Below, one piece after another: positions 56,078 through 64,000 of a stretch of DNA of 64,000 nucleotides. A program made the translations under genes and the position numbers. The notes below the pieces were generated by a model. It had not been told where the DNA came from. It searched no databases and saw only the letters and a program-made list of their open reading frames with translations. Source of the DNA: a virus (lineage: Duplodnaviria > Caudoviricetes); IMG/VR virus record IMGVR_UViG_3300017917_003016, positions 1 through 64,000 of that record; one strand, written 5' to 3'. Position 1 is the stretch's first letter. Each line of letters begins with the position of its first letter.

Positions 56078-56141
56078 ATTTTGGTTGACCTTTTGGTCCT
56101 GTGAACATATAATAGCAGCATAACGTAACAACACAGGAGCA
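56075..56141 (+). promoter_or_regulatory. Early promoter-leader-RBS cassette P1
   Basis: GG-TTGACC(56085)-N17-TATAAT(56108)-AGCAGCATAACGTAACAACACAGGAGC. Confidence 0.9.
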
Positions 56142-56145
56142 TACA

Positions 56146-56535
56146 ATGGCATACTTTAGTCAAGAACGCAAGGCTCAAATCGCCCCCAAGGTCAAGAGTA
56201 TCCTGAAGAAGTACGGCCTTAAGGGTAGCCTTAGTGTGCGCAATCACAGCACTGTGGTCTTGACCATCAACAGCGGCAAGATTGACTTTATCGGTAACAA
56301 CCAAGAGACCATGGGTCGCACCTGGGCCCAGCGCCGCACCAATCTTGATGTCAACATTTATCACTATCGTAATCACTTTGACGGTGTTGCACGTGACGCA
56401 CTCGCTGAACTGATTACTGCTCTCAACGACGGCAACTGGGACAACAGCGACATCCAGACCGACTACTTTGACAAGGGTTGGTACGTTAACGTCAATGTTG
56501 GTCGTTGGAACAAGGGTTATATTGTCACTGCCTAA
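56146..56535 (+). CDS. Early hypothetical protein
   Basis: 129 aa directly after P1; DYFDKGWYVNVNVGRWNKGY. Confidence 0.8.
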   Translation: MAYFSQERKAQIAPKVKSILKKYGLKGSLSVRNHSTVVLTINSGKIDFIGNNQETMGRTWAQRRTNLDVNIYHYRNHFDGVARDALAELITALNDGNWDNSDIQTDYFDKGWYVNVNVGRWNKGYIVTA

Positions 56536-56545
56536 GGAGGCTAAG

Positions 56546-56692
56546 ATGTTTGATCTTATCGATGACACGGCTGCACTCCACGCTCAATGGGAACTTGAGT
56601 ATCAAGAATGGCTAGGTAGCGAAGCCTGGGTTGAAGTTGTTAACCAGTGGCTTTGTGAATTGGCTAACGAAATGCTCAATGAGGAGGCCTAA
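56546..56692 (+). CDS. Small acidic early protein
   Basis: MFDLIDDTAALHAQWE...; AAGGAGG RBS. Confidence 0.65.
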   Translation: MFDLIDDTAALHAQWELEYQEWLGSEAWVEVVNQWLCELANEMLNEEA

Positions 56693-56859
56693 TGGAAAGC
56701 GTTCAAATGAATGAAATTCTGCAGCGCATGGCTCGTGAACGTAATTGTACGGTTTATCAGGTCATTCAAGAGTATTTGAAATACCAATTAAACGGGCAAG
56801 TCAAACACTTTTGGCCTGACCAAAACGAGGCCTGTAGGTCCTATTTGGAGAACAACTGA
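56692..56859 (+). CDS. Small early protein (55 aa)
   Basis: MESVQMNEILQRMARERNC...; GAGGAGG RBS; TAATG coupling; not in the ORF track. Confidence 0.6.
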   Translation: MESVQMNEILQRMARERNCTVYQVIQEYLKYQLNGQVKHFWPDQNEACRSYLENN

Positions 56860-56927
56860 TGAGTCTTATTGGACTTATTGTAATGCTGCTGGTACTTGGT
56901 ATTCTTATTGGAAGGTACATTAGGTGA
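56859..56927 (+). CDS. Tiny membrane peptide (22 aa)
   Basis: MSLIGLIVMLLVLGILIGRYIR; TGATG and GTGA overlaps with both neighbours. Confidence 0.5.
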   Translation: MSLIGLIVMLLVLGILIGRYIR

Positions 56928-57151
56928 CTGCAGAATCTGAGCGTTTTTGTCAACTAATTGATGAATTGAGGCGGGCCTATGTTGCCTCAGATTCTGCAGA
57001 AAGTTCATATGCAAGGCTAGTTGGTGCTCTGGGTGCTATGATACCTTGGTATGTAGACGCTGAAAATCTAGCCAAACTCAACAATGCTCTAGAACAAGCA
57101 GTTAAAAACGAAACTATGAAAATTCTTGGTAAGGAAAATATCCATGCTTGA
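56924..57151 (+). CDS. Early hypothetical protein
   Basis: 75 aa, GTG start coupled to the previous stop. Confidence 0.6.
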   Translation: MTAESERFCQLIDELRRAYVASDSAESSYARLVGALGAMIPWYVDAENLAKLNNALEQAVKNETMKILGKENIHA

Positions 57152-57533
57152 TCAAGAAAACGAGAAGTTCAACGAAGTTGTGTTTGATGGCATCCGTTTT
57201 CTAGAGAGCCTGACTCGTTATTACGGTGCTGAGCGTGGCATGGAAGTCTGGGAACAGTTGGGTGAAGTTGTAGGCAAGGACGTGCAGGGCCAGGTGTTCT
57301 TTGCCATGCTCACGGGCGATACCAGTAACCGTGTGAGAATCAGCCGCGGCACCTGTAAAGAAGCAGTGACCGCTATCAAGGCCATTCGTCAGGCCACTGG
57401 CATGAGTCTCAAAGAAGCCAAGGATGCCTGGGATCTCACTGCAGTCAAGACCGTGACTCTTGACAATGTTCAGCGCGATGCCAAACAGGAGTTTCTTCGC
57501 GATCTTCGCAGTATTGGTGTGAGGGTTCACTAA
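57144..57533 (+). CDS. Protein with a ribosomal L7/L12 C-terminal-like domain
   Basis: AVTAIKAIRQATGMSLKEAKDAWD matches the L7/L12 CTD motif (VIKAVRxxTGLGLKEAKDLVE). Confidence 0.7.
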   Translation: MLDQENEKFNEVVFDGIRFLESLTRYYGAERGMEVWEQLGEVVGKDVQGQVFFAMLTGDTSNRVRISRGTCKEAVTAIKAIRQATGMSLKEAKDAWDLTAVKTVTLDNVQRDAKQEFLRDLRSIGVRVH

Positions 57534-57534
57534 C

Positions 57535-57999
57535 ATGGCAGAAATTTTTTACCGTAAGGTCGGCCGCCGCTATGTCCCAGTCAGTGAATATGACAACTCT
57601 GTCATGGACAGTTTTCCCTACGGATCTCATCTTGTGGTGGTAAAGCGAGGATCAACTAGCCGCCGCCACAACATTGATCCTGCACACGCACCTATGATCG
57701 CTGCTGGTCTTATTGCTGAAGATGCAGTGAGAGAAGCATTGGTCAAAGCCGGCGAAATTCGCCTGCAACGCCGTGACCGTGAACGTCAACTTACACCCGG
57801 ACAAAAGCAGGCCTGGGATAATCTAGTCAAAGAATTTGGTGACAGTGCCAAACAACTGGAATGGCCCAGCACTGCAGAAGTTGCTGAAGAAGGAGTTAAA
57901 GCCATGCAGCGAGAAGCAGATCAACTGCTGCAGAACCCCTCAGTACGTGCAGCCTATGATCATTTTTTGACAGTCTGCGAACTGTGCCGCGAGCATTAA
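57535..57999 (+). CDS. Early hypothetical protein
   Basis: 154 aa; IFYRKVGRRYVPVSEYD. Confidence 0.7.
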   Translation: MAEIFYRKVGRRYVPVSEYDNSVMDSFPYGSHLVVVKRGSTSRRHNIDPAHAPMIAAGLIAEDAVREALVKAGEIRLQRRDRERQLTPGQKQAWDNLVKEFGDSAKQLEWPSTAEVAEEGVKAMQREADQLLQNPSVRAAYDHFLTVCELCREH

Positions 58000-58003
58000 A
58001 ATT

Positions 58004-58060
58004 GGTTGACCTTGCCTGCAGATCACTGTATAATGCTTGCATACGCTAACAAAGCAGGAG
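58004..58060 (+). promoter_or_regulatory. Early promoter P2
   Basis: GG-TTGACC(58006)-N17-TATAAT(58029); CAGGAG RBS. Confidence 0.88.
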
Positions 58061-58068
58061 TAGACAAC

Positions 58069-58416
58069 ATGGCTTACATCGTTTTCCATTTTGAAACTCG
58101 CCAAATCATCAAGCATTATGCTTCGCGCAAGGGTGCACTGGTTGGTCTCCGTGCTGCTAATCGCAATGCTGGCTATCCGCAGCGTTGGACTCTGTGCAAC
58201 TACGATGTTGATCACGGTGCTCTGCGTGAGTGGTGCGAGACTGCCGATGGCTCCAACGGCTATGCTCCTTATGCTGCTATCGAATCCAACCTGTTTGATC
58301 AACACTATCGTCGCAACATCACGGTGACCAATCTTATGACGGGCAAGCCTGTGGAAATTGACAGCAACACCCCGTGGAGTTGCCGCCCGGACAGCGAAGC
58401 CTACTGGAGTAACTAA
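58069..58416 (+). CDS. Early hypothetical protein
   Basis: MAYIVFHFETRQ...; C-terminal NTPWSCRPDSEAYWS; start placed after the P2 RBS. Confidence 0.75.
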   Translation: MAYIVFHFETRQIIKHYASRKGALVGLRAANRNAGYPQRWTLCNYDVDHGALREWCETADGSNGYAPYAAIESNLFDQHYRRNITVTNLMTGKPVEIDSNTPWSCRPDSEAYWSN

Positions 58417-58431
58417 TTTAATGAGCCAAAC

Positions 58432-58707
58432 ATGATTAACATTCAATTTAACATTCACAATCCACTAGTTCATCGATTTGTGCCCGTTAAGATATGGCAA
58501 GGTCCAACTCCTATTGAACACAAATTTTGGGAGTTGGAAATCTACAAGAGTTCGGATATTGTTGATGCGTTCTTTCGTTTCGACTGTTGTCAAAGCCATG
58601 CTGGGCTGCATCTAGGTCTAGCACTGCTGGGATACAACATTGAATTTCAAATCTATGACCATCGTCATTGGGACTATGAAGAAGAAGATTGGTATTATAA
58701 TGAATAA
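58432..58707 (+). CDS. Hypothetical protein
   Basis: 91 aa; SHAGLHLGLALLGY...IYDHRHWDY. Confidence 0.65.
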   Translation: MINIQFNIHNPLVHRFVPVKIWQGPTPIEHKFWELEIYKSSDIVDAFFRFDCCQSHAGLHLGLALLGYNIEFQIYDHRHWDYEEEDWYYNE

Positions 58708-58717
58708 GGAACTGATT

Positions 58718-58852
58718 ATGAAAACTATTGCACTGGTAATTGCTGTACTGTCGCTGATTTCTTTGGCATTTAACTACTCTGATCCTGCAGCAGCCGCAGG
58801 TTGGGCTGTGGCCTTTGCTGGTTGGATCTTCCACGCACTGGCCAAAGAATAA
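58718..58852 (+). CDS. Small two-TM membrane protein
   Basis: MKTIALVIAVLSLISLAF...AAGWAVAFAGWIF; AAGGA RBS. Confidence 0.55.
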   Translation: MKTIALVIAVLSLISLAFNYSDPAAAAGWAVAFAGWIFHALAKE

Positions 58853-58899
58853 AATGAAATTTATGCTGCAACTGGGACTCTGCGGAATCTAAAGACCGT

Positions 58900-59118
58900 A
58901 TGAATCAAAAAATTCGTGAGTTTATTCAAAGGTCTTATCCTCAAGTTGACCTTGACCAAGAAATTGCCAATCGCGATGAATTGCCTAAAGAAGTTGAGCA
59001 TTTGGTTACCCTAGTGGTGGAAGAATGTCTTAAGGTTAGTGGCCGCACCCCCACAGTGTGGCCTTTTGCCTTTATAGATTTTAACAAGGTAATCAGACGA
59101 CATTTTGGCCTAGATTAG
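58900..59118 (+). CDS. Hypothetical protein
   Basis: 72 aa; LVTLVVEECLKV...IRRHFG. Confidence 0.55.
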   Translation: MNQKIREFIQRSYPQVDLDQEIANRDELPKEVEHLVTLVVEECLKVSGRTPTVWPFAFIDFNKVIRRHFGLD

Positions 59119-59181
59119 ATTTTGGTTGACCTTTTGTTCCTGTGATCTTATAATAGTGGCATAACGTAAAACACAGGAGCA
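59116..59181 (+). promoter_or_regulatory. Early promoter-leader-RBS cassette P3, near-copy of P1
   Basis: TAGATTTTGG-TTGACC(59126)-N17-TATAAT(59149)-AGTGGCATAACGTAAAACACAGGAGC. Confidence 0.9.
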
Positions 59182-59185
59182 AGGC

Positions 59186-59446
59186 ATGAACAGTCAAGCC
59201 ATTCAAACTGCTATCTATACTTGGGCAACCAACGGTAGTTTTTCTGCACCTTACGGTGTGCTCACTGGCCAACACGCCAGTCGCAATGGTCGCAACTATC
59301 ATTCAGTGACCTTTGGTCGTGCCCGCAGTCTGGACTGCGAAGTGCAGATCTACAACAGGAATTTTATTGTAGTACGTACTAACCGTCATGGTAGCCAGGT
59401 ATTTCGTAACTACCAAGACTGTCAAAACTTCCTGGATACTCTGTAA
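59186..59446 (+). CDS. Early hypothetical protein
   Basis: 86 aa directly after P3. Confidence 0.75.
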   Translation: MNSQAIQTAIYTWATNGSFSAPYGVLTGQHASRNGRNYHSVTFGRARSLDCEVQIYNRNFIVVRTNRHGSQVFRNYQDCQNFLDTL

Positions 59447-59482
59447 TTCTTCCAACAGATAAATATCTAACAAGGACCTGCA

Positions 59483-59665
59483 ATGAAAATCACTGAAGTT
59501 AGCAAGACCAATCGCCAAGCACTGCGCGAAAGCCTTGAACAGTCCAACGATACTGGTTTCAGTGTTGACGACCTTATGACTATCTACGATCTGCACAAGA
59601 ACGGTGATTGGGACTGTGTAGACGCCGATGATGAAATTGCACGTCTTGATGCTATGATTGACTAA
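59483..59665 (+). CDS. Small acidic protein, candidate antitoxin
   Basis: Late promoter GATAAATA at 59458-59465; MKITEV N-terminus; acidic C-terminal half; directly upstream of a RelE/YafQ-like gene. Confidence 0.55.
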   Translation: MKITEVSKTNRQALRESLEQSNDTGFSVDDLMTIYDLHKNGDWDCVDADDEIARLDAMID

Positions 59666-59670
59666 TCAGT

Positions 59671-60072
59671 ATGCCTGCGCCGCGCGATAATAAACCACAA
59701 ATACAAAGAAAATTTTGGCGCAGTACAGAGTACCGAGATCAGGTCAACCCAGAAAATCCAAATCGAGTCCGCGGTTCAGTCAAAGATTCTCTTAAGAGAT
59801 TTTTGAGCAGCAAAAGAACTAATCCGCAACAGTCCTACGGCAACAAAGACTATCCGTTTACATCAGCAGGGCAATTTGCCCATGAAGTTCCGGGACTGAT
59901 GCATGCTCATTTAAGTCAAGATCTTTCCATAGTCTATAAAGTTCAAGGTAACGAAATATATCTTTTTGGGATATTTTCACATGCTGACCTTGGTACCGGA
60001 AATCCTCCAAATATTCGTAAACAAACTAGTATGGCACGAAGATTTGCCAACATGACCTTTACTGAAGAATGA
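59671..60072 (+). CDS. RelE/YafQ-like mRNA interferase
   Basis: DYPFT...GLMHAHLSQDLSIVYKVQGNEIYLFGIFSHADL parallels YafQ (DHPL...ECHIxPDWLLIY...LxLxRxGSHSDLF). Confidence 0.65.
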   Translation: MPAPRDNKPQIQRKFWRSTEYRDQVNPENPNRVRGSVKDSLKRFLSSKRTNPQQSYGNKDYPFTSAGQFAHEVPGLMHAHLSQDLSIVYKVQGNEIYLFGIFSHADLGTGNPPNIRKQTSMARRFANMTFTEE

Positions 60073-60078
60073 CTCTTT

Positions 60079-60133
60079 GGTTGACAACCCTGCTCTAGAC
60101 CTGTATAATAGCGGTACAGTGAACAACAAGGAG
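60079..60133 (+). promoter_or_regulatory. Early promoter P4
   Basis: GG-TTGACA(60081)-N17-TATAAT(60104); AAGGAGC RBS. Confidence 0.9.
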
Positions 60134-60141
60134 CAACAACA

Positions 60142-60297
60142 ATGACCCACAATGAAATCATGGACGAATGGGCACGTCGACTCAATTACGTTGCACAACT
60201 GTTCCGTGAAGGTGAGATTGATCTGTGTGAGTTTGACGAACGCAACGCTGCGGTGCAAGGTTGGTTTGACACTGAGTATGCCAAGGTAGTTGGTTAA
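60142..60297 (+). CDS. Small early protein (51 aa)
   Basis: MTHNEIMDEWARRLNYVAQLFREG...; follows P4; not in the ORF track. Confidence 0.7.
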   Translation: MTHNEIMDEWARRLNYVAQLFREGEIDLCEFDERNAAVQGWFDTEYAKVVG

Positions 60298-60316
60298 TTT
60301 TAACAAGGAGCGCACA

Positions 60317-60406
60317 ATGTATATTCCCCAACCTGTGATTATTTTTGTTGTGTCCCTTCTCATCGGCTACGGCGCTGCTGACATTTTTGCAAAATTCTTC
60401 AATTAA
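60317..60406 (+). CDS. Small membrane peptide (29 aa)
   Basis: MYIPQPVIIFVVSLLIGYGAADIFAKFFN; AAGGAGC RBS. Confidence 0.6.
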   Translation: MYIPQPVIIFVVSLLIGYGAADIFAKFFN

Positions 60407-60431
60407 TCACTTGCTCAATCAGGAGATAACT

Positions 60432-60701
60432 ATGACTGCACAAGAAATCGTTCGCGAGATCGTCACTGGCAACTTCACTGCTGATGAAGTTCGCAGTTTC
60501 TACGACGCCTATAAGTTTGCTGCCAATCAACTGTCGCGCAAGGCAACCTTTACTCTGCGCCGAGGCGACAAGGTCAAGTTCAAGGACCGCTATGGTTTGG
60601 AAGTGATCGGTACTGTGCAGGACATCAAGATCAAGAACGTAGTGGTTAAGACTACGTTGTATACCTACCGTGTGCCGGCTAGCATGGTGACTGCGGCTTA
60701 A
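60432..60701 (+). CDS. Early protein with SH3/KOW-like C-terminus
   Basis: MTAQEIV...; LRRGDKVKF...GTVQDIKIKNVVV..YRVPASM; CAGGAG RBS. Confidence 0.7.
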   Translation: MTAQEIVREIVTGNFTADEVRSFYDAYKFAANQLSRKATFTLRRGDKVKFKDRYGLEVIGTVQDIKIKNVVVKTTLYTYRVPASMVTAA

Positions 60702-60703
60702 TT

Positions 60704-60907
60704 ATGATTATTACCGAAGAACGTCAAATGGTTCTGCAGGCAGTGCTTGACGGGCAACTGAGTGCAGATTATGTCACCGACGAAGAACTTATCTTTCTGC
60801 ATCACAGTCTAGCAGATTCTACTATTGAAGAAGCCATGTATGCAGCAGAGTCTCGCAATGATGTGACGGTGTTTGGTCTTGACTGGGAATATGCGCAGCC
60901 CAATTGA
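60704..60907 (+). CDS. Hypothetical acidic protein
   Basis: 67 aa, packed in the operon. Confidence 0.55.
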   Translation: MIITEERQMVLQAVLDGQLSADYVTDEELIFLHHSLADSTIEEAMYAAESRNDVTVFGLDWEYAQPN

Positions 60908-61106
60908 CACCAAAAGATATCCTTATCAGGTTGTGGTTGTTGAGCCTATACCAGTCATGGCACACATTTGGTTAAAAAATAATCAAATTGATCACAAGGA
61001 CTCCTTTACTGAGGGTGCTGCTGTGGGACAGTTAGATCCTCTGGTGCGTTGTATCTATTTTGCCGATGCTCGTGATGCTGCTTGGTTTGCTTTGAAGTGG
61101 TCATAA
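60891..61106 (+). CDS. Hypothetical protein
   Basis: Ends in IYFADARDAAWFALKWS. Confidence 0.55.
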   Translation: MRSPIDTKRYPYQVVVVEPIPVMAHIWLKNNQIDHKDSFTEGAAVGQLDPLVRCIYFADARDAAWFALKWS

Positions 61107-61126
61107 AATTTGAAATTAGGTAAATT

Positions 61127-61318
61127 ATGATAGAAAAAACTAGATTAGATGGATTACTGTTCGCCATGTTAGGCGACAGTCAGTTGGTAGAACGTTGGTG
61201 GTATAGTCCTAACAAGGCCTTTGACTCAGAAAGGCCGATTGATGTTTTTGTACTAGAGCCCGATCGAGTCAGAGACTATGTCATGCGTATGGCCAATCTC
61301 AACAGTGACTACGACTGA
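61127..61318 (+). CDS. Stand-alone MbcA/ParS/Xre antitoxin C-terminal-like protein
   Basis: MLGDSQLVERWWYSPNKAFDSERPIDV...VRDYV resembles the G...A..WL..PN.AL.G..P.D pattern. Confidence 0.55.
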   Translation: MIEKTRLDGLLFAMLGDSQLVERWWYSPNKAFDSERPIDVFVLEPDRVRDYVMRMANLNSDYD

Positions 61319-61380
61319 TTTTGGTTGACATTTTGGTCCGTTGATCGTACAATAGCATCATACTAACAACAACGGAGCAA
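61316..61380 (+). promoter_or_regulatory. Early promoter P5
   Basis: GATTTTGG-TTGACA(61325)-N17-TACAAT(61348)-AGCATCATACTAACAACAACGGAGC. Confidence 0.88.
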
Positions 61381-61384
61381 GACT

Positions 61385-62014
61385 ATGGCCTACTACCGCA
61401 AGCACCAAGTGGAAGAACCCCGTTTTACGGTCAAGGAGATTGTGGCCGCAGCCATTATTCAAGATGAACAACATCCCACAAAGGACGGTGTTCCGCTGAC
61501 TACTCGTGACATCCTTGAAAGCACTCCTGTGCTGCCCGTGGCTCGTGCTGAGCAAATGATTGAAGAAGTACAGCAGAATTTTACTCTCAGCATGCTGCGC
61601 GGTCGAGAGTTCAGCAACTTCAATCGCAAGTTGGCAGAAATCATCAGCGAGCCTGAAGCCAAAACCAACAGCAATTTTGGTATCCTTGCTTATGTTCCCA
61701 GTGTTCACCGTGACCTGGTCAAGACCAACACTATTACTGAACAAACCTGTGACAGCCGCTATCAAGGACGCACAGGCGAAACTTTGAATTTTACGGCTCG
61801 CGTGTTGAACTGCCGTTACATTGCCAGTTATGGTTTCTATACCGCACTGTTGCTTGACGACACCGGTAACGTCTACAGTTTCAGTCCTAAGGCTTCGCTA
61901 GATGAAGGTGCGACTGTGACCATCCGTGGCAAGGTCAAGGCACACAAGCAGGACAAGTACAACAACAACGTTGAGACTACCTATCTCAACTATGTCAAGA
62001 TTCAAAAAAATTAA
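61385..62014 (+). CDS. Early protein with a C-terminal OB-fold-like domain
   Basis: GETLNFTARVLNCRY...DDTGNVYSF...VTIRGKVKAH...TYLNYVKI. Confidence 0.7.
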   Translation: MAYYRKHQVEEPRFTVKEIVAAAIIQDEQHPTKDGVPLTTRDILESTPVLPVARAEQMIEEVQQNFTLSMLRGREFSNFNRKLAEIISEPEAKTNSNFGILAYVPSVHRDLVKTNTITEQTCDSRYQGRTGETLNFTARVLNCRYIASYGFYTALLLDDTGNVYSFSPKASLDEGATVTIRGKVKAHKQDKYNNNVETTYLNYVKIQKN

Positions 62015-62017
62015 ACA

Positions 62018-62082
62018 AGATTTGGTTGACAGGCTTACCAAAATATCATATAATAGCATCATAACGTAACAACACAGGAGCA
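62018..62082 (+). promoter_or_regulatory. Early promoter-leader-RBS cassette P6
   Basis: GG-TTGACA(62026)-N17-TATAAT(62049)-AGCATCATAACGTAACAACACAGGAGC. Confidence 0.9.
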
Positions 62083-62088
62083 GCACAA

Positions 62089-62490
62089 ATGGCCAAGATC
62101 TACACCTTCGACGAGAACATTGTTAGCGATCTGTACAAGGATGCCTATGGTCACCGCCCGGGCCAATCGTTCTGGGAAATGTGGAAGACTGTCACCGACC
62201 GTGACCGCCAAGAAATTTGGGACAACCTGCTTGAGGCTCTGGACCGTGCCGTTGAGCAAGAACGTGCTGCCCGGACTCGTGCCGAGCATGACTTCCAGTT
62301 CACTATTGCTAGCCTGATGCATGCAGGTGCCAAGGACTTTGAAATGGCCGTTCGTTGGCTACATGACGCAAACGACACCCAAGGTGACGATGAGTACCTG
62401 GAGTACAAGTTGGGAATTGGCTACGGCTATATCCGCGAGGCTCGTGAGTCCATGCAGGTTGCCAATGAACTGCTGGCACAAACCGCATAA
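62089..62490 (+). CDS. Early hypothetical protein
   Basis: 133 aa; SDLYKDAYGHRP. Confidence 0.75.
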   Translation: MAKIYTFDENIVSDLYKDAYGHRPGQSFWEMWKTVTDRDRQEIWDNLLEALDRAVEQERAARTRAEHDFQFTIASLMHAGAKDFEMAVRWLHDANDTQGDDEYLEYKLGIGYGYIREARESMQVANELLAQTA

Positions 62491-62492
62491 GT

Positions 62493-62563
62493 GGTTGACA
62501 ACTAGATCCAAAGATCATATAATACTGAAACTGTAGTACAAAACACAATAACTTTTCAGGAGC
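62493..62563 (+). promoter_or_regulatory. Early promoter P7
   Basis: GG-TTGACA(62495)-N17-TATAAT(62518); CAGGAGC RBS. Confidence 0.9.
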
Positions 62564-62570
62564 ATAGACA

Positions 62571-63398
62571 ATGAAGACTACCACTCGTACTCGCGTTCGT
62601 ATTGCCAAGGCCCCGGTCAAGACTGAAGCCCAGCGCATGCAGGAGATTGCTGAACGTTTTGAAATCCTGGATGAAATGGCCAAGGCCACTACCAACGGTG
62701 ATATCCGTGCTATGATTGTTTCGGGCCCTCCGGGTGTGGGCAAGAGTTTTGGCATCGAGCGTGTTATTGACAAGGCTGTGTTGTTTGACCAAGTGGCCGG
62801 CAAGCGTCTGCGCTGCGAAGTGGTCAAGGGTGCTGCCAGTGCCATTGGCCTGTATACCACTCTGTACAAGTACAGTGATCCTAACTGTGTTGTGGTGTTC
62901 GATGACTGTGATAGCATCCTGTTGGACGATGTCTGTCTTAACCTGCTTAAGGGTGCACTGGACTCGGGCAAGAAGCGCCGCATTTCGTGGCTCAGCGACA
63001 GCAACATTCTGCGCCGCGAAGGTGTGCCTAATCAGTTCGACTTCAAGGGTGCTGTGATCTTTATCACCAACCTTAAGTTTGATGACATGAAGAGCAAGAA
63101 GTTGGCTGACCACCTTGAGGCTCTGCAAAGCCGTTGCCACTACATTGACCTGGCTCTGGACACTACTGAAGACAAGATTCTGCGTATCAAGCAGATTGCT
63201 GCTACTGGTGAACTGTTCCAAGATTATGAGTTTGATCAGTGCGTTCAGGACGAAATCATCGAGTTTATGACTACTAACAGCAGTCATCTTCGTGAAATCA
63301 GTCTGCGTATGGCCATCAAGATTGCTGACCTGCGCAAGAGTTTCCCTGTCAAGTGGCAGGCCCTGGCTCGTACTACCTGTATGAAGGCCGCGGCGTAA
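62571..63398 (+). CDS. AAA+ / P-loop ATPase
   Basis: Walker A GPPGVGKS; Walker B VVVFDDCD; IFITN; ALQSRC arginine finger. Confidence 0.88.
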   Translation: MKTTTRTRVRIAKAPVKTEAQRMQEIAERFEILDEMAKATTNGDIRAMIVSGPPGVGKSFGIERVIDKAVLFDQVAGKRLRCEVVKGAASAIGLYTTLYKYSDPNCVVVFDDCDSILLDDVCLNLLKGALDSGKKRRISWLSDSNILRREGVPNQFDFKGAVIFITNLKFDDMKSKKLADHLEALQSRCHYIDLALDTTEDKILRIKQIAATGELFQDYEFDQCVQDEIIEFMTTNSSHLREISLRMAIKIADLRKSFPVKWQALARTTCMKAAA

Positions 63399-63408
63399 TC
63401 AATTTTGT

Positions 63409-63520
63409 CTGAGGTAATAACTCCACGTGATAACTATTTTTTGCAGTACCTCGGCGCACTTTTTATTGTCTAGCTCCTAGTGCATCGAGTTTTAAGCCCA
63501 GAGTTTTCTCTGGGCTTTTT
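63409..63520 (+). ncRNA. Candidate structured 3' UTR antisense RNA
   Basis: Stems CTGAGGTA/TACCTCGG and GCACT/AGTGC; loop ATTGTCTAGCTCCT complementary to early RBSs; ends in a terminator. Confidence 0.4.
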
Positions 63521-63522
63521 TT
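63494..63522 (+). terminator. Rho-independent terminator
   Basis: AAGCCCAGAG-tttt-CTCTGGGCTTTTTTT. Confidence 0.9.
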
Positions 63523-63567
63523 ACCTTAACAGTTGCATTTGTTTTCAACAAACTATATACTAATAAG

Positions 63568-64000
63568 ATGACCAAATATTCATATGTTGAAGACTATCTA
63601 GAACTCCTAGCAGGCTACGAACCTAACAACCTGCTCAATCAGTTTACGTATTCTTTGCCAGGTAAGATAGTTAAACTGGCCCGTTATGACATCAGTGTGG
63701 TAGAAAACATGGCCAACAACACCATATGGGGTACTGCACTAACTGATCGTCAGGCGGAATTGGCAGTCAAGTTGATTTTGAAATATCGCAGACAATTTGC
63801 TGCCAAAGGTATAGATGTTAGTCCGGTTGAAACACCCACCTTTCGAATCCCAATTAGAAAAATTGATCGAACAAAGAGCATCATACTTGATCAAGATCTC
63901 GTAAAAATTAGATTTCCCTATGATCAAAAGTATATCGATGCCATGCAAAATTTGCAGAAGCAAAACAAAGGGCTAGTGACCTTTGATAGACACTCTAAGA
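63568..64000 (+). CDS. Hypothetical protein (3' truncated)
   Basis: MTKYSYVEDYLELLAG...TALTDRQAELAVKLILKYRRQF...; open to the window end; promoter TTGCAT-N17-TATACT at 63533-63561. Confidence 0.7.
   Translation, partial: MTKYSYVEDYLELLAGYEPNNLLNQFTYSLPGKIVKLARYDISVVENMANNTIWGTALTDRQAELAVKLILKYRRQFAAKGIDVSPVETPTFRIPIRKIDRTKSIILDQDLVKIRFPYDQKYIDAMQNLQKQNKGLVTFDRHSK

Follow-up and report, generated by a model that had tools for sequence, protein, structure and literature searches.

A conserved anti-Shine-Dalgarno stem-loop at the 3' end of a jumbo phage early transcription unit and its predicted pairing with the start of an ATPase gene

The window analysed here covers the initial 64,000 nucleotides of a 201.7-kb IMG/VR virus record from a jumbo phage, which is estimated to be ~56% complete. 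T4-like features of this phage include a homologue of nrdC.10 and a TAAATA-like late box. The early region extends over 56.08-63.52 kb on the plus strand and contains seven sigma70 promoters close to the consensus; a stereotyped leader ending in (A/C)GGAG(C/T)...ATG follows each of them (the early gene starts were curated by hand). In a terminator scan the whole region shows a single strong intrinsic terminator, located behind the last early gene. This gene encodes an AAA ATPase homologous to T4 NrdC.10; tblastn matches it to T4-type nrdC.10 and to PA5oct, a Pseudomonas jumbo phage (48% identity), and 253 relatives are found in viral contigs, with ~75% amino acid identity. The features of the early region and its 3' border are as follows.

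56085-62523, plus strand: seven early promoter-leader cassettes, (A)TTTTGG-TTGAC(A/C)-17-TA(T/C)AAT-AGC.GCATAACGTAACAACACAGGAGCA, several of which are near-copies of each other
62495-62523, plus strand: P7, the last early sigma70-type promoter (TTGACA-17-TATAAT, 12/12 consensus match), start of the ATPase mRNA
62558-62576, plus strand: ATPase initiation region, with Shine-Dalgarno (SD) sequence AGGAGC at 62558-62563, bulged A at 62564 and AUG at 62571; predicted partner of 63461-63478 (duplex and fold calculations)
62571-63398, plus strand: AAA ATPase gene, 275 aa, homologue of T4 NrdC.10, last early gene (PF00004, E = 8.9e-6)
63450-63489, plus strand: anti-SD stem-loop, with 5' arm 63450-63460, loop 63461-63478 and 3' arm 63479-63489 (MFE and centroid folds)
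63471-63478, plus strand: invariant loop motif TAGCTCCT (RNA UAGCUCCU), the complement of AGGAGCUA (conservation in relatives)
63494-63522, plus strand: intrinsic terminator of the early region, with a 10-bp stem, UUUU loop and U-run (terminator scan and fold)
63533-63570, plus strand: sigma70-like promoter TTGCAT-17-TATACT directly 3' of the terminator, a conserved downstream neighbour of the hairpin element (sequence reading)

The gene that follows the terminator, gene 63568 (379 aa), is without a Pfam match. Its mRNA appears to be leaderless, because the ATG lies only 6 nt past the -10 element. A similar arrangement, with a sigma70-like promoter overlapping the T-run of the terminator and an ATG that is always 6-7 nt after the -10, is seen in the window and in relatives (L012, L016, L022, L027, L033, L035, L053, L055, L065 and L068-L070), and another early gene of the relatives (MKYFAYGMNT...) starts 6-9 nt after its own -10.

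The hairpin arms, CTCGG-C-GCACT and AGTGC-A-TCGAG, align over 11 positions that include a 1x1 internal mismatch, and enclose an 18-nt loop, UUUUAUUGUCUAGCUCCU (also given as TTTTATTGTCTAGCTCCT). A 127-nt region around the hairpin folds with z = -3.7 relative to dinucleotide shuffles. The hairpin ends 4 nt 5' of the terminator, whose stem has 6/10 GC pairs and is followed by a T-run, as is characteristic of intrinsic (Rho-independent) terminators. The loop 8-mer TAGCTCCT or its complement has just three occurrences in the 201.7-kb record: the loop itself and two genuine translation starts. A small ORF on the minus strand, behind AGGAGCTA, was considered and rejected, as no start codon follows in any clade.

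The locus had been put forward in an original prediction as a candidate small RNA of roughly 110 nt, flanked by a 5' stem and a strong terminator and acting on the ribosome-binding sites (RBSs) of the early genes. The sequence and coordinates given there are correct, as are the five RBS-to-start strings, all of which are present at the genes named. Of the two flanking elements, the terminator is indeed strong, but the 5' stem (63405-63433) is weak, missing from the centroid fold and not conserved in relatives. Since, in addition, the hairpin of the relatives often starts immediately past the stop codon, the conserved unit measures ~65-75 nt instead of ~110 nt.

The same module is found once per genome, at the end of the ATPase transcription unit, in ~54 of 81 related jumbo-phage loci, although these relatives share ancestry and counts across loci are not phylogenetically independent. 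It consists of a hairpin with loop T(A/G)GCTCCT, a U-rich spacer of 3-10 nt and an intrinsic terminator, followed by a sigma70 promoter of which the -35 (TTGACT) overlaps the T-run and by a gene with its ATG 6-7 nt past the -10. The loop motif, U(A/G)GCUCCU, does not vary: among 42 distinct elements T-GCTCCT is the same throughout, and its A is conserved in at least 90%. The stems, on the other hand, are very diverse. When 30 distinct hairpins are aligned with their arms flush, 26 distinct 5' arms and 5-6 pair types at each stem position are counted, and 97% of the pairs are canonical, compared with 49 +/- 4% when partners are shuffled. Because the stems had been picked by complementarity, the same stem finder was also run on 4200 random sites, which give a median stem score of 8.2 against 17.5 at the elements. 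Furthermore, the stems contain 21 G.U pairs against 2 A.C pairs, in agreement with an RNA transcribed from the plus strand.

In plain MAFFT alignments the motif acts as an anchor and helix 1 is masked, and RNAalifold returned only the terminator from them; for this reason the flush-arm counts and an alignment fitted to a covariance model (R1) were used. In the fitted alignment all 7 pairs of helix 1 change on both sides, with a covariation score of 0.60 versus 0.18; none of 500 shuffles scores as high, and slid registers reach at most 0.15. Helix 2 of the model, the terminator, is 99% paired and also covaries in relatives. Searched against the 201.7-kb record, model R1 finds the 63450-63489 hairpin as the sole confident copy (49.4 bits, E = 1e-6). 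Two relatives with 97-98% complete genomes (338 and 354 kb) likewise yield a single copy each.

No copy was detected by model R1 in an 81% complete relative, nor in the genome of PA5oct, the closest cultured relative, where only terminator-like matches of 23-25 bits were obtained. About a third of the relatives have no element within 3 kb. The closest relative with a short ATPase (L002) has a hairpin at the same place without any CUCC, and L005 has merely a degenerate CUCCC in place of the loop motif. No family of Rfam 15 reaches its gathering threshold; the best match in the window scores 21.6 bits versus a threshold of 50 (RF02278), and the element of L012 (L012:5543-5649) has a sub-threshold match to rsmX (36 bits versus a gathering threshold of 56, E = 0.002). 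These sub-threshold matches probably reflect a likeness of hairpin-plus-terminator geometry. A megablast of the region against cultured phages gave no match. The hairpin is genuine, an RNA structure of the plus strand that is conserved where the early transcription unit ends.

A feature acting at the level of DNA, such as an operator-like site, an origin or single-stranded DNA hairpin, or an early promoter-leader cassette copied in inverted orientation and left as a relic, is a very improbable explanation of these observations. Double-stranded AGGAGCTAGACAAT does occur at 63467-63480 on the minus strand as well as at two gene starts, and the repeated early cassettes are plausible substrates for recombination. 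However, the excess of G.U over A.C in the covarying stem indicates plus-strand RNA, and a dimeric DNA binder would conserve the arms rather than the asymmetric centre. In none of the clades is the motif followed by an ORF or start on the minus strand, and conservation over very divergent relatives makes a relic unlikely.

Within the early region the loop has its best match at the start of the ATPase gene itself, AGGAGC[A]TAGACAATG (62558-62573, -23.5 kcal/mol), and none of 3000 shuffled loops in which CUCCU was kept matches this start as well. In the MFE structure of the whole 992-nt mRNA, the ATPase start region and the loop (63461-63478) form 18 bp with each other. Comparable folds were made of whole mRNAs of 1.0-1.4 kb, although MFE prediction is unreliable for RNAs of ~1 kb and such folds are weak evidence. 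In these the SD is paired with the 3'-UTR loop in 18/24 distinct relatives and in 0/24 when the loop is reversed, the loop being chosen among a mean of 2.8 CUCC sites per mRNA. The longest duplexes require opening of the local stem. When the ~6.8-kb locus is scanned for the longest exact complement to the loop, the ATPase start comes out in ~25/36 distinct cases, over 7-11 nt; in the largest clades the match is just 7-9 nt (AAGGAGCU).

The variable loop bases follow the ATPase start of the same phage, as seen for AGGAGCTAAA in L013, AGGAGCTAGA in L046, AGGAGCTAAC in L016 and L022, ACAGGAGCTAA in L030 and TAGACAA in the clade of the window. All GGCUCCU variant loops (L010, L025 and L054/57) go with AGGAGCC starts, although these two events represent only ~2 lineages; in L057 the match spans 11 nt, AGGAGCCAACC. 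Loop/start duplexes from the same phage have a mean energy of -14.9 kcal/mol, compared with -13.2 kcal/mol for mismatched combinations (permutation p = 0.001, 8 loop classes). The ATPase start contains GGAGC in 35/36 distinct loci with the element, versus 6/17 loci without an element within 3 kb. These four comparisons agree in direction. The two sequences also always share one transcription unit: no convincing terminator or promoter was found between ATPase and element in 16 relatives, including those with gene insertions of 0.5-2.7 kb. Judged from sequence comparison, the loop is thus a putative 3'-UTR anti-SD, which lies on the same transcript as the SD and has a complementarity to it that goes beyond chance and has been kept through evolution. 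The loop UAG stays invariant even where the ATPase start has C, A or G at the corresponding place, which hints at an extra constraint, e.g., several targets or a protein.

The combination of a variable stem and an invariant asymmetric loop is indeed the classic signature of a protein-bound RNA hairpin. The element could then serve protein recognition or act at the 3' end, by stabilising the mRNA, by marking a site of processing or by modulating the adjacent terminator in a nut/put-like manner, with an incidental likeness to an anti-SD. Its position is in line with such a role, as it always lies 3-10 nt 5' of the terminator at the junction between the early and the next class, and so are the invariance of UAG against a varying presumed partner and the close relative that keeps a hairpin here with an unrelated loop. 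In a comparison with nut/boxB- or put-like elements, hairpin position and loop conservation fit as well, but the co-variation of loop and start is unexplained by such a class. We consider this alternative improbable, though a serious rival, for it accounts neither for variable loop bases that change with the start of the ATPase gene in the same phage, nor for the occurrence of GGCUCCU loops with AGGAGCC starts, nor for the association of the element with GGAGC starts.

The better-supported reading, for which we put the chances at slightly better than even, is an icaR-like lock on the ATPase mRNA in which the 3' UTR folds back onto the SD; the pairing, the resulting repression and the action in cis instead of in trans are what we infer from the data above. 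The 3' UTR of the last early unit would present the anti-SD UAGCUCCU in the loop of its hairpin. On completion of the transcript, this loop would pair with the AGGAGC(U) RBS of the ATPase gene, ~0.9 kb upstream on the same RNA, and in the window phage the predicted duplex covers the ATPase AUG too. Such pairing should block binding of the 30S subunit and would probably speed up decay, the 18-19 bp duplex of the window phage being a possible RNase III substrate. Ribosomes could still load during transcription, after which the finished 3' UTR would close the start, resulting in a burst of translation.

Sequestration of an RBS by an anti-start sequence elsewhere on the transcript has a parallel in phage T4, where hairpins of gene e, soc and I-TevI hide the start on early read-through transcripts. 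In those T4 genes the anti-start sequence immediately precedes the start, and a late promoter within the hairpin allows it to be bypassed, whereas in the jumbo phage the corresponding sequence is found ~1 kb downstream, in the 3' UTR. The closest likeness in mechanism is to the icaR mRNA of Staphylococcus aureus, whose 3' UTR has a UCCCCUG motif that pairs with the mRNA's own SD (PMC3868564); in both cases a pyrimidine-rich anti-SD motif is the conserved core of the UTR. The icaR 5'UTR-3'UTR pairing blocks initiation and can create a substrate for RNase III (PMC3868564). There is no sequence homology with icaR, and, unlike in icaR, the motif is placed in the loop of a short covarying hairpin adjoining the terminator, at the end of a multi-promoter early operon of a lytic jumbo phage, with a duplex that is predicted to extend over the AUG. 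Experiments have further established that, over hundreds of nucleotides, anti-SD-like 8-mers on the 3' side base-pair with an RBS, which blocks initiation and favours decay (Gill et al. 2025, PMC12697547). The mechanism and distance range proposed here are the same, but those sequences are accidental and selected against, while the phage motif is positively conserved, structured and covarying with the RBS.

Since all read-through early transcripts end with the module, and the other promoter-proximal early genes use AGGAGC as well, the loop could also work in trans, and the cis and trans modes can coexist. The six other promoter-proximal early starts form the following predicted duplexes with the loop.

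56135-56148, plus strand: AGGAGCATACAATG, start of gene 56146, a weaker loop complement, -13.7 kcal/mol
58056-58071, plus strand: AGGAGTAGACAACATG, start of gene 58069, -15.1 kcal/mol
59175-59188, plus strand: AGGAGCAAGGCATG, start of gene 59186, -16.7 kcal/mol
60129-60144, plus strand: AGGAGCAACAACAATG, start of gene 60142, -14.4 kcal/mol
61373-61387, plus strand: CGGAGCAAGACTATG, start of gene 61385, -15.6 kcal/mol
62076-62091, plus strand: AGGAGCAGCACAAATG, start of gene 62089, -13.5 kcal/mol

The promoter-proximal early starts rank in the top 2-6% of duplex energies in comparison with 172 other genes of the phage, and the loop is, as originally proposed, an anti-SD complementary to their AGGAGC-type sequences. 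GGAGC is present in 6/10 early starts versus 13/63 elsewhere; the internal early genes have other SDs. For the six starts listed, the real loop performs better than shuffled loops in which CUCCU was kept (p = 0.02), but when GCUCCU is kept the shuffled loops are as good in 9.5% of the trials (p = 0.10), and the regulon-wide complementarity thus essentially amounts to the 6-nt core AGGAGC. The comparison with anti-SD-keeping shuffles, which had been proposed as a refuting test, therefore gives a weak result for the claim that one loop addresses many early genes, as the six starts do not clearly surpass the controls. Of the promoter-proximal early starts of the relatives, several are without AGGAGC, which is almost always present at the ATPase start. 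No second extended target of the loop, within 3 mismatches, was found in the near-complete relatives G001 and G002, and a target search in the fragments G005-G007 gave only the ATPase start and AGGAGCAAG-type starts. The early region contains 11 CTCC sequences against 17.4 +/- 4.0 expected, a depletion that is weak and carries no argument.

Nor is the best target in this genome an early gene. The covarying partner is the start of one early gene, that of the ATPase, and the best match of the loop in the entire record lies outside the window, at the start of gene 118895 (AGGAGCTAGACAATG), with 14 nt of perfect complementarity and a duplex of 19 bp that includes one G.U pair (-27.6 kcal/mol). In the region 118895-120265 of the record (L083:2896-4266) a CsgF-like gene (PF10614, E = 4.7e-11) is followed by a CsgG-like gene (PF03783, E = 3.4e-50). 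The CsgF-like gene is probably a late gene rather than an early one. In the relatives its homologues are located on contigs other than those of the ATPase loci, and their upstream regions differ.

A reading in which a stable 3'-UTR-derived small RNA of ~70 nt, produced from all seven early promoters, represses the early genes with AGGAGC starts in trans, so acting as an early-to-middle timer, and also the CsgF-like gene, appears unlikely. The architecture fits, with a conserved loop seed in an otherwise variable 3' UTR and the intrinsic terminator of the mRNA with its U-tail. In addition, all seven promoter-proximal early starts contain (A/C)GGAG(C/T), GGAGC is enriched among early starts and the CUCCU-keeping shuffles are outperformed, as described above. 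The perfect 14-nt CsgF-like target is on another transcript and could be reached in trans only, and the invariant UAG suits a consensus for multiple targets better than a single partner. The Hfq-type small RNAs CpxQ, SroC and DapZ, which are made from the 3' ends of mRNAs and act on translation starts, similarly carry their seed upstream of the parental intrinsic terminator; unlike in these RNAs, the best conserved target of the phage element is the parental mRNA itself. Against this reading stand the success of the GCUCCU-keeping shuffles, the other SDs of the internal early genes, the AGGAGC-free early starts of relatives and the lack of an extended second target in G001 or G002. Moreover, a scan of the ATPase 3' end and a comparison of the relatives revealed no internal promoter or conserved 5' processing feature for a small RNA. 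Given the weak shuffle results and the co-variation with the ATPase start, the regulon-wide action in trans is therefore supported only in part, and, with the covarying partner being one gene start on the same transcript, fold-back in cis is at least as likely as action in trans.

More doubtful still is the idea that anti-SD RNA from seven strong early promoters globally titrates SDs of the AGGAGC type, closes down the early regulon and releases ribosomes for the next class. The first gene of that class, directly downstream, is conserved as apparently leaderless and would therefore be translated from an SD-independent mRNA. In the early shut-off of T4 the RegA repressor and the RegB endoribonuclease, which cuts GGAG in early SDs, are involved. 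If true, global titration of AGGAGC would be the RNA counterpart of RegA/RegB: the SD region of early mRNAs is targeted and silencing is post-transcriptional in both, but the effectors are proteins in T4 and an RNA is proposed here.

Returning to the fold-back of the 3' UTR onto the ATPase start, 3' UTRs that reach back to their own RBS are known from very few bacterial genes; a literature search turned up no example conserved in lytic phages, nor is one known to us. A 3'-UTR anti-SD regulator would be new for phages and unusually well supported by natural co-variation. The element is single-copy and covarying and occurs widely in a large clade of uncultivated jumbo phages of ~340 kb, in which it tracks the RBS of one conserved early gene, that of an uncharacterised T4 NrdC.10-type ATPase. 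It constitutes a new RNA family that could join Rfam, offers evidence from natural co-variation for long-range aSD/SD pairing in vivo, and opens a testable way into the question of how early gene expression ends in these phages; should the reading in trans be true, it would represent an RNA-based temporal switch.

Several further observations concern the regions around the two genes. Upstream of the csgF-like gene (118845-118897 of the record, L083:2846-2898) a hairpin is present of which the 5' arm, TCTAGTCTAGATTCCTTG, is itself anti-start, and a T4-late-like GTAAATAC box is contained in the loop. The csgF-like homologues of relatives, too, have TAAATA boxes within hairpin loops. The arrangement resembles the device of T4 gene e and soc, by which only transcripts from the late promoter are translated. 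The CsgF-like and CsgG-like proteins represent curli-type secretion genes in a jumbo phage.

The ATPase of the window is without the ~75-aa N-terminal domain (MSNAFIRIKSGAYR...GGQFPGFPEDIRVKV) that is present in most relatives (342-348 aa; compared with L013, L016, L021, L028, L046 and L072), and the short form is common to the window, L002 and L005 only. Gene 62089-62490 was considered as the missing N-terminal domain, but a comparison shows that it is not. Small hydrophobic ORFs of ~30 aa (e.g., MVWFFAILLLLAGQPLLAFALAAIALMIKS) are located between the ATPase stop codon and the element in L026, L033, L053, L063, L070, L004, L008 and L035. Another conserved motif, GCCGTGTGCGTAAC(G/C)GGCAATGTCAATAAGTCC(C)GTTTCGATAA, for which Rfam has no match, lies in the first ~60 nt after the ATPase stop in L003, L012, L017, L018, L036, L038 and L048. 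In L017 this GCCGTGTGCGTAAC-type motif takes the place of the anti-SD hairpin, just 5' of the junction of terminator and promoter.
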